IMG/VR virus record: IMGVR_UViG_3300045988_056936
Coordinates: 1-64,000 of that record
Strand: one strand, 5' to 3'
Source of the DNA: a virus
DNA: 64,000 nucleotides
The notes beneath the pieces were generated by a model. It ran no database searches, was not told the DNA's origin, and worked only from the letters and a program-made list of their open reading frames with translations. Every line of letters begins with the position of its first letter. Position 1 is the first letter of the stretch. Below are positions 27,926 through 28,486 of this stretch, in pieces. The position numbers and the translations under genes are program-made.

Positions 27926-28486
27926 ATGAAAAAGACAATTGAAATTGAATGTCCAGATGGTTATAAACCCATCTATAATGCCGAAACTGGCAATGTTGAA
28001 ATCGTTCCAGAAAACATTATGGGACGGATAAGAACCTATGAGGATGCTGTAAACTATCTAGGGTGTGTTACTAGAGATACTATTTACTACAATAGATCTG
28101 TAAATTCTCTAGCTAAGTTGCAGACAGTCTTGGATGCGCTAAATGAAGGTCACAAGTTCAATCTGTTAACTGGTACTATATGGTATCCCTGGGTTCGCTT
28201 CTTTAGAATGAAATCAGTTCCGAAGGATGCAGAAGTCATTGGTCACTTCCGTTATCAGGGCGAGAAATTCGCGCTAGTGGGCGGCTGCGCGGATTATGGC
28301 GGCCATGCGGGTCTCGGCTTTTTCTATTCTTGCGATGGCGTCGGCCGTGCCCGTTCCTATGTCGGGATGCTAGCGTGCAAATCTGAAGAAATTGCCAAAT
28401 ACGTATCAACCCAGTTTGGAAAGCTAGTGTTCGATGCTTGTTTTGCAAGACATTTCAAGGGTGAAGAATTTGAATGGCTTGACTAA
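27926..28486 (+). CDS. Small DGR target protein carrying VR2 (..LVGGCADYGGHAGLGFFYSCDGVGRARSYVG..). Putative CLec/FGE-like ligand-binding fold
   Basis: A 186-aa ORF. Residues about 115-147 are encoded by the adenine-diversified repeat. A signal-peptide membrane protein (28486..28965) follows directly. Confidence 0.7.
   Translation: MKKTIEIECPDGYKPIYNAETGNVEIVPENIMGRIRTYEDAVNYLGCVTRDTIYYNRSVNSLAKLQTVLDALNEGHKFNLLTGTIWYPWVRFFRMKSVPKDAEVIGHFRYQGEKFALVGGCADYGGHAGLGFFYSCDGVGRARSYVGMLACKSEEIAKYVSTQFGKLVFDACFARHFKGEEFEWLD
28271..28367 (+). repeat. DGR variable repeat VR2. Remote second target, inverted relative to the TR
   Basis: The plus-strand sequence matches the reverse complement of TR with substitutions only at TR adenines (a->g/t/c at about 20 sites). 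The 3' end tgtcggg mirrors VR1 (tgtcggg) and TR (tgtcgag). It lies inside CDS 27926..28486. Confidence 0.8.

Follow-up and report, generated by a model that had tools for sequence, protein, structure and literature searches.

The stretch analysed here, positions 1 to 64,000 of IMG/VR virus record IMGVR_UViG_3300045988_056936 (64,000 nucleotides (nt), hereafter the window), contains a repeat of about 94 nt in exactly three copies: at 113-206 and 314-407 on the minus strand, and at 28273-28366 on the plus strand, inside a small gene. A repeat pattern with the adenines masked matched these three copies in the window and gave no match in 100 shuffles. The copy at 113..206 (-) was taken as the template repeat (TR) of a diversity-generating retroelement (DGR), because it is non-coding and, on the minus strand, rich in adenine (28 of 94 nt); in the reading frame of the variable repeats (VRs) it holds 10 AAY codons and one TAT. 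The adjacent variable repeat, VR1 (314..407, -), forms the C-terminus of a tail protein 201 nt from the TR. The second variable repeat, VR2, whose 94-nt core lies at 28273..28366 (+), encodes residues 116-147 of a 186-aa protein and is separated from the TR by 28,067 nt, on the opposite strand. Both VRs depart from the TR at TR adenines exclusively: all 17 mismatches of VR1 over 94 nt fall there, and so do all 21 mismatches in the ungapped core of VR2 (hypergeometric P=2.5e-15). The GC content is 61% at 28250-28349 and about 35-40% in the flanks. A sequence-only reading of the window had described this segment as a reverse-complement homologue of the TR with some 20 substitutions at TR adenines only, as a GC-rich island in an AT-rich genome, and as a second target of the TR lying 28 kb off on the other strand; the measurements bear out each of these descriptions.

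The activity of VR2 was assessed in related genomes. Orthologues were collected by a protein-based search, which is unbiased by the VR sequence, from 32 related IMG/VR genomes, 28 of which align without gaps. Across these 28 orthologues, 28 of the 30 TR-adenine columns of VR2 were variable, 21 of them with at least three different bases, at a mean entropy of 1.28 bits. In contrast, only 7 of the 64 non-adenine columns varied, none with three or more bases, and the mean entropy was 0.035 bits. In the 45 genome pairs with 0-2 differences in the 467 nt outside the VR, the two VR2 copies disagreed on average at 15.0 adenine and 0.13 non-adenine sites, and genomes identical over the rest of the VR2 gene still differed at 11-22 adenine sites. 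VR1 was hypervariable as well across 20 genomes, with 1.22 bits at adenine versus 0.031 at non-adenine sites. The sequence-only reading had regarded an invariant VR2 beside a varying VR1 as the mark of an inactive relic; across the related genomes VR2 was found to be as variable as VR1, with a mean column entropy at TR-adenine sites of 1.26 versus 1.22 bits when the two were compared. On this sequence evidence VR2 is very probably an active second target of a single DGR in a TAG-recoded crAss-like phage of about 192 kb.

The codons of the TR fit the products seen in VR2. Fourteen amino-acid types were observed in VR2, and the AAY codons never gave K, E, Q, M, W or a stop. Single adenines in AGC and GAG codons were almost fixed as G, giving Gly, which is best read as selection on scaffold glycines. 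The TRs of the related genomes are conserved and have two adenines more than the TR of the window. The window TR reads G at these two positions (GGCGGC and GCGGG), where every relative displayed (L003, L007, L012 and others) reads A (GGCAGC and GCAGG); each position is G in 27 of 28 VR2 copies, and the adenines of the relatives' TRs appear to be selected back to G, giving Gly. Variation in length was also seen among the orthologues (P0057, P0066, P0037, P0014, P0086 and L059). An internal direct repeat, GG-x-A-x-x / GG-x-AG, is the site of losses or duplications of six residues, and deletions of 1-2 codons are found too. These length variants go beyond simple adenine mutagenesis and suggest slippage or misaligned integration of the cDNA.

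No reverse transcriptase (RT) is encoded inside the window. Over 12,104 nt the window matches, at 100% identity, a metagenomic contig of 191,730 bp (ENA ERZ28595537, scaffold_15; locus L081), in which the start of an RT gene lies 32 nt past window position 1. This gene has 424 codons with 4 in-frame TAG, matches RVT_1 (E=2e-18) and contains the DGR-type motifs GNYLSQ (GxxxSQ) and YADD. Because the RT start was found in this identical contig, the order of the cassette on the minus strand could be set as VR1 gene, TR, RT; the spacer between TR and RT (1..112, -) would be part of the DGR RNA. An open reading frame (ORF) of 121 aa after the RT has no Pfam match, and there is no ORF between VR1 and the TR. 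The VR1 target gene (287..2104, -) encodes a 605-aa tail protein with a C-terminal C-type lectin (CLec) domain of the FGE type and 8 in-frame TAG codons read as sense. The same holds for the other structural genes of the minus strand, in which the long ORFs (a tail protein, the portal and TerL) are restored only with TAG readthrough. The minus-strand ORFs at 287-13322 contain up to 32 in-frame TAG per gene, and practically no TAG occurs in the plus-strand block between 27 kb and 56 kb. Homologous tail-protein genes of the classified crAss-like phages cr7_1, cr52_1, cr6_1 and cr53_1 (L083, L086, L087, L090) show in-frame TAG codons that likewise disappear when TAG is taken as sense. Two suppressor tRNAs with anticodon CTA were identified by ARAGORN, at 17504..17576 (-) and 19976..20046 (+), among 27 tRNAs in the window; the first would be needed to translate the TAG-containing RT and VR1 genes. 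The nearest classified sequences to TerL are from Crassvirales, at about 28% identity, and judged from sequence the phage is a TAG-recoded crAss-like phage of about 192 kb. Its size, tRNA block, CTA suppressor and amber-interrupted GxxxSQ RT would also fit an assignment to the Zeta crAss-like phages, which is given here as a lead and not as a result. A DNA search with the VR2 region and the left end of the window found no close relative among GenBank phages.

In the established DGR model, TR RNA is copied into an adenine-mutagenised cDNA that replaces a VR. Here the TR (113-206, -) would be transcribed, and the RT would copy the transcript into cDNA while misincorporating opposite template adenines. 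The cDNA would then replace either VR1 or VR2, the two sites being rewritten independently. These retrohoming steps are proposed by analogy, and their outcome is the observed variation. The 3' ends read ATGTCGGG in both VRs versus ATGTCGAG in the TR; past the last variable codon the homology continues for about 9 nt and includes one fixed A-to-G difference (GTCGGG in the VRs, GTCGAG in the TR), and this short shared end may act as the homing boundary. At the 5' edge the VR2 of the window keeps the TR-like C28274 and A28276, which most orthologues lack, and the 5' boundary of VR2 appears to be variable. The RT gene, unlike the VR2 gene, contains in-frame TAG codons (4), and RT activity would therefore be confined to the phase of infection in which the suppressor tRNA is active, so that diversification probably takes place late in infection.

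Two other explanations of the variation at VR2 have to be weighed against its being an active target. The repeat could be an inactive relic of a former DGR target that has retained its similarity to the TR, and some of its features would agree with this. VR2 is internal to its protein and not C-terminal, and of the IMH-like (initiation of mutagenic homing) 3' end and the downstream hairpin that the sequence-only reading had suggested seeking at VR2, neither a hairpin (z=0.02; a weak one follows VR1, z=-1.97) nor a long IMH-like element was found, the 9 nt or so of 3' homology being unlike the IMH of BPP-1. These points tell against an active VR2, as do the absence of a detectable Avd accessory gene in the immediate cassette, the only region examined for it, and the fact that activity was judged from a comparison between genomes. 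Avd is not universal among DGRs. A relic, however, would gather changes at non-adenine sites, where the mean entropy is 0.035 bits, whereas VR2 varies as much as VR1 and at TR-adenine sites only. The 11-22 adenine-site differences among genomes that are identical elsewhere in the gene contradict the relic explanation, which we consider hardly tenable. Alternatively, VR2 could vary by recombination or gene conversion, either with VR1 or between co-infecting phages, and not by retrohoming. The two VRs share 94 nt of near-identical scaffold able to support exchange, and a degree of slippage or recombination is evident from the length variants of ±18 nt at the internal direct repeat. However, VR1 and VR2 are no closer to each other within a genome (15.5 adenine sites apart) than between genomes (15.0), so they are rewritten independently and not copied from each other, and conversion of VR2 by VR1 was rejected. 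Exchange alone creates no new combinations of adenine sites, and C28274 and A28276 at the 5' edge are as expected from a variable cDNA crossover. Variation by exchange is thus very unlikely, and the reading of VR2 as a target rewritten by the DGR is retained.

The protein that carries VR2 is encoded at 27926..28486 (+). It is a soluble protein of 186 aa, without signal peptide, transmembrane segment or in-frame TAG, and it matches the profile phrog_11581 (E=4e-15, residues 25-176 against profile positions 37-195 of 200). VR2 lies inside this ORF and not at its end, as the sequence-only reading had stated: a conserved helical tail of 39 residues follows. The VR2 protein, its paralogue described below and the immediate neighbours gave no Pfam match (E up to 10) and no PADLOC match. 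The VR2 protein had no match to FGE-sulfatase, DUF1566 or related Pfam families, a test of low power given that the VR1 protein had none either. Searches of the PDB with profiles of both families, VR2 and VR1, brought up no variable protein, so that the test for CLec at the level of sequence is uninformative. Folds were compared by means of predicted models and one structural library. The CLec/FGE-like fold that had been suggested for the protein was not found in its model, and the VR1 domain, run as a control, did show it; a BFVD fold search returned only uncharacterised members of the VR2 protein's own family. In the model, a beta-sheet and a helical pair at the C-terminus flank a segment rich in loops, to which about 12 hypervariable residues belong. 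The order of elements (N-terminal strands, two helices, three strands, the loop-rich VR and a final strand) is loosely CLec-like. Outside the VR, at residues ~47-55 (window ~28064-28090), there is a second variable patch with indels and no TR counterpart, which reads CVTRDTIYY in the window, is shorter in P0086, P0071 and P0018, and coincides with a loop of lower predicted model confidence (pLDDT).

Comparison of the profiles of the VR2 family and of the VR1 tail-protein family aligned 45 columns only, corresponding to the VR itself, with a probability of 96%. One and the same VR cassette therefore occurs in two settings: the tail protein carries it within a canonical CLec domain of the FGE type, the small protein on a scaffold not recognisable as CLec. 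Directly upstream of the VR2 gene lies a gene for a 154-aa protein (27351..27815, +), a VR-less paralogue of the N-terminal half of the family (hhalign against the family alignment A2: 94.8%, E=5e-8, 85 columns). Its presence fits a pre-existing small scaffold that acquired a VR. From the predicted structure, the product of the VR2 gene may be read as a hypervariable ligand-binding surface on a scaffold without a recognisable C-type-lectin fold.

Between the paralogue and the VR2 gene there is a tRNA-His gene (27823..27896, +; ARAGORN), and the VR2 gene lies within the phage's tRNA array, in which 25 tRNA genes over about 23 kb (25035-48406, +) are interleaved with small ORFs, that of VR2 included. 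The downstream gene (28486..28965, +) encodes a 159-aa protein matching phrog_33832, with an N-terminal signal-like segment and C-terminal hydrophobic segments. Its ATG overlaps the TAA of the VR2 gene (TAATG), and this overlap, as the only basis, suggests that the downstream product could be associated with VR2 function. The sequence-only reading had listed here a signal-peptide membrane protein, a lipoprotein and an NfeD/flotillin operon. The first of these agrees with the gene at 28486-28965, but in place of a lipoprotein gene there are tRNA-Ser and tRNA-Trp. The NfeD label of the ORF at 29476-29994 has no Pfam support, whereas the SPFH/Band-7 gene at 30013-31986 was confirmed. The SPFH/Band-7 protein (+ strand, 657 aa) contains Ala/Glu/Lys-rich internal repeats, encoded at 30700-31530 with a 33-nt period (families D1-D3). 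About 6 kb from the VR2 gene, an AAA ATPase is encoded at 34747-35931 (+; PF00004, E=4e-12), with weak PADLOC matches of the IetA-like type.

The VR2 protein is not confined to this phage. In a tblastn search of GenBank phages its sole match was a 193-aa protein (WAK79127) encoded in a recombination/replication module of Versailles, a cultured Bacteroides phage (ON453897; host B. caecimuris). This protein matches phrog_11581 at E=1e-78. Versailles resembles the window phage in having VR1 in a tail protein (WAK79192), then an intergenic TR (53750-54081) and then an RT (WAK79195), together with a remote VR2 in the phrog_11581 protein. Its TR-VR mismatches are without exception at TR adenines, 11 of 11 in the case of VR2. 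It differs in its size of 58 kb, its standard code, and the placing of both targets on the same strand. Both VRs of Versailles read GGGTTCCGCTTGTGCC where the TR reads ...TTTTACC, and they share an IMH-like end, ...CGCTTGTGCC, from which the TR differs (...CGCTTTTACC); this IMH is clearer than that of the window. This two-target DGR (L080 5863-6444 and L082 4389-7270) is unannotated: in the two regions viewed, the GenBank record of Versailles has no feature for a DGR, TR or VR. The record labels WAK79127 a tail protein, a name that traces to a weak match to phrog_5302 over the VR only (E=1e-7, residues 114-161) and that, judged from the extent of this match, is a mislabel. As Versailles carries both targets, the combination of a tail protein and a phrog_11581 protein is, on the evidence of the two genomes, a recurrent dual DGR target in unrelated Bacteroidota phages.

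An exhaustive search for the family gave 234 representative clusters, nearly all of them stand-alone proteins of 170-210 aa, and distant members, too, show hypervariability between conserved flanks in the segment that corresponds to the VR. No TR-like repeat was found within ±10 kb of 33 distant members. Two RT-like motif matches near distant members turned out to be YLDD motifs in an AAA ATPase, and VR-less ORFs upstream of the family gene in L118, tried as relatives of the family, were not significant (probability 1.7%). An AAA ATPase gene lies directly downstream of the family genes in L116 (1788-2942) and L118 (10797-11921), and a 75-kb phage contig (L091) has its family member among ATPase, nucleotidyltransferase and NAMPT genes. 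The setting of the family gene is thus a tRNA array in the window, a recombination module in Versailles and ATPase or metabolic genes in L091.

What the VR2 protein does can be approached from these settings. The sequence-only reading had proposed a second hypervariable ligand-binding protein that is no obvious virion fibre; its hypervariability and non-structural context are seen, a binding surface is predicted, and the protein is most likely not a tail fibre. Our best guess, to which we give somewhat less than an even chance, is that it is an intracellular or membrane-proximal binder in the conflict between phage and host, because it has no export signal and no TAG, sits in non-structural neighbourhoods in three phage types, and overlaps a membrane-protein gene by TAATG. 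This assignment is drawn from the absent signal peptide and the gene neighbourhood, and it counts against it that incorporation into the virion would be compatible with the same data. The main alternative would make the protein virion-associated, an accessory receptor-binding protein whose gene lies apart from the structural block, with VR2 serving adsorption as VR1 does. In its favour, the VR2 protein and the tail protein sample one loop sequence space, and subfamilies differ in the N-terminal beta-hairpin or helix but share a conserved core, as for an adaptor. GenBank also calls the Versailles homologue a tail protein, but this label comes from the weak VR-only match to phrog_5302. Moreover, in three unrelated phage contexts the neighbours of the gene are tRNA, recombination or ATPase genes, and in the window it has none of the TAG codons typical of the late structural genes of this phage. 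We rate a role in the virion as somewhat less likely than the intracellular one. We also considered a broader proposal in which the variable proteins of DGRs would comprise, besides the C-type lectin and immunoglobulin (Ig) classes, a third structural class formed by the phrog_11581 proteins and derived from a VR loop cassette of about 35 residues of a CLec tail protein that was grafted onto an unrelated small alpha/beta phage scaffold, whose VR-less paralogue lies next door. Instead of taking part in adsorption, they would act as intracellular hypervariable binders in the conflict between phage and host, with variable factors of host defence or surface biogenesis as conceivable ligands, and the pairing of tail protein and phrog_11581 protein would be a conserved dual-output design of the DGR in unrelated Bacteroidota phages. 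Taken as a whole this proposal is tentative, and we would sooner expect some part of it to fail than all of it to hold.

The arrangement of one adjacent and one non-adjacent target is already known. The sequence-only reading had called it uncommon, which is fair, but it is documented (PMC5758913, PMC8008677). Wu et al. 2018 (PMC5758913) found non-adjacent targets in 45 of 372 DGRs, and many phage DGRs in their set combine one adjacent target with a non-adjacent one within 50 kb, a layout that the DGR of the window shares, its targets being 28 kb apart. The targets of Wu et al. were classed by CLec-type motifs (FGE-sulfatase, DUF1566) or Ig motifs, none of which the VR2 protein matches. The survey of Roux et al. 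2021 (PMC8144416) was unable to detect remote targets. Similar in layout is the Quimbyvirus DGR described by Benler et al. 2021 (PMC8008677), whose second target is distal, on the opposite strand, non-structural, and reported to have a C-type lectin domain. Quimbyvirus and the window phage each have one TR and RT with two VRs, one VR gene beside tail-fibre genes and the other distal on the opposite strand, and in Quimbyvirus, too, activity was deduced from adenine-site variation among near-identical genomes. However, the second target of Quimbyvirus lies in a methyltransferase/nuclease "defence" island and the VR2 gene in a tRNA array; the Quimbyvirus RT is split over three frames and that of the window phage is interrupted by TAG; and the VR2 protein, a member of phrog_11581 with no detectable CLec fold, is set apart from the Quimbyvirus target by the latter's description.

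The DGR of BPP-1, with its target Mtd, resembles that of the window in adenine-specific retrohoming from TR to VR, in AAY codon design and in RT family. It has a single adjacent target, Avd, a long GC-rich IMH and a downstream hairpin, none of which was found for VR2, and its VR is C-terminal in a CLec fold whereas VR2 is internal. The part consulted of the paper on Zeta crAss-like phages (PMC12386605) gives genomes of about 150-190 kb that hold a tRNA block along with a CTA suppressor tRNA, an RT with amber codons and GxxxSQ, a tail-fibre target with a C-terminal CLec, and Avd usually absent, all of which recall the window phage; the cassette targets described in that part are tail fibres, and it mentions no remote target. 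What would be new here, then, is the scaffold of VR2, which by fold search of predicted models appears to be non-CLec, with an internal VR and a VR-less paralogue adjoining. The hypervariability throughout the family and the conserved pairing with a tail protein, which extends to a cultured phage, are new as well.

Phage DGRs are usually read as switches of tail-fibre tropism. Here an abundant lineage of human-gut phages and a cultured Bacteroides phage each diversify a second small protein that is apparently non-structural, which points to a second axis of rapid adaptation. Since Versailles is in culture and carries this pair of targets, the question is directly testable. The target VR2 would be missed by DGR surveys that scan about 10 kb around the RT or assume the standard code, given the four in-frame TAG codons of this RT. 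Counts of remote targets in recoded phages are therefore probably too low. If the scaffold is truly non-CLec, it would represent a compact fold of about 150 aa that tolerates on the order of 10^12 sequence variants.
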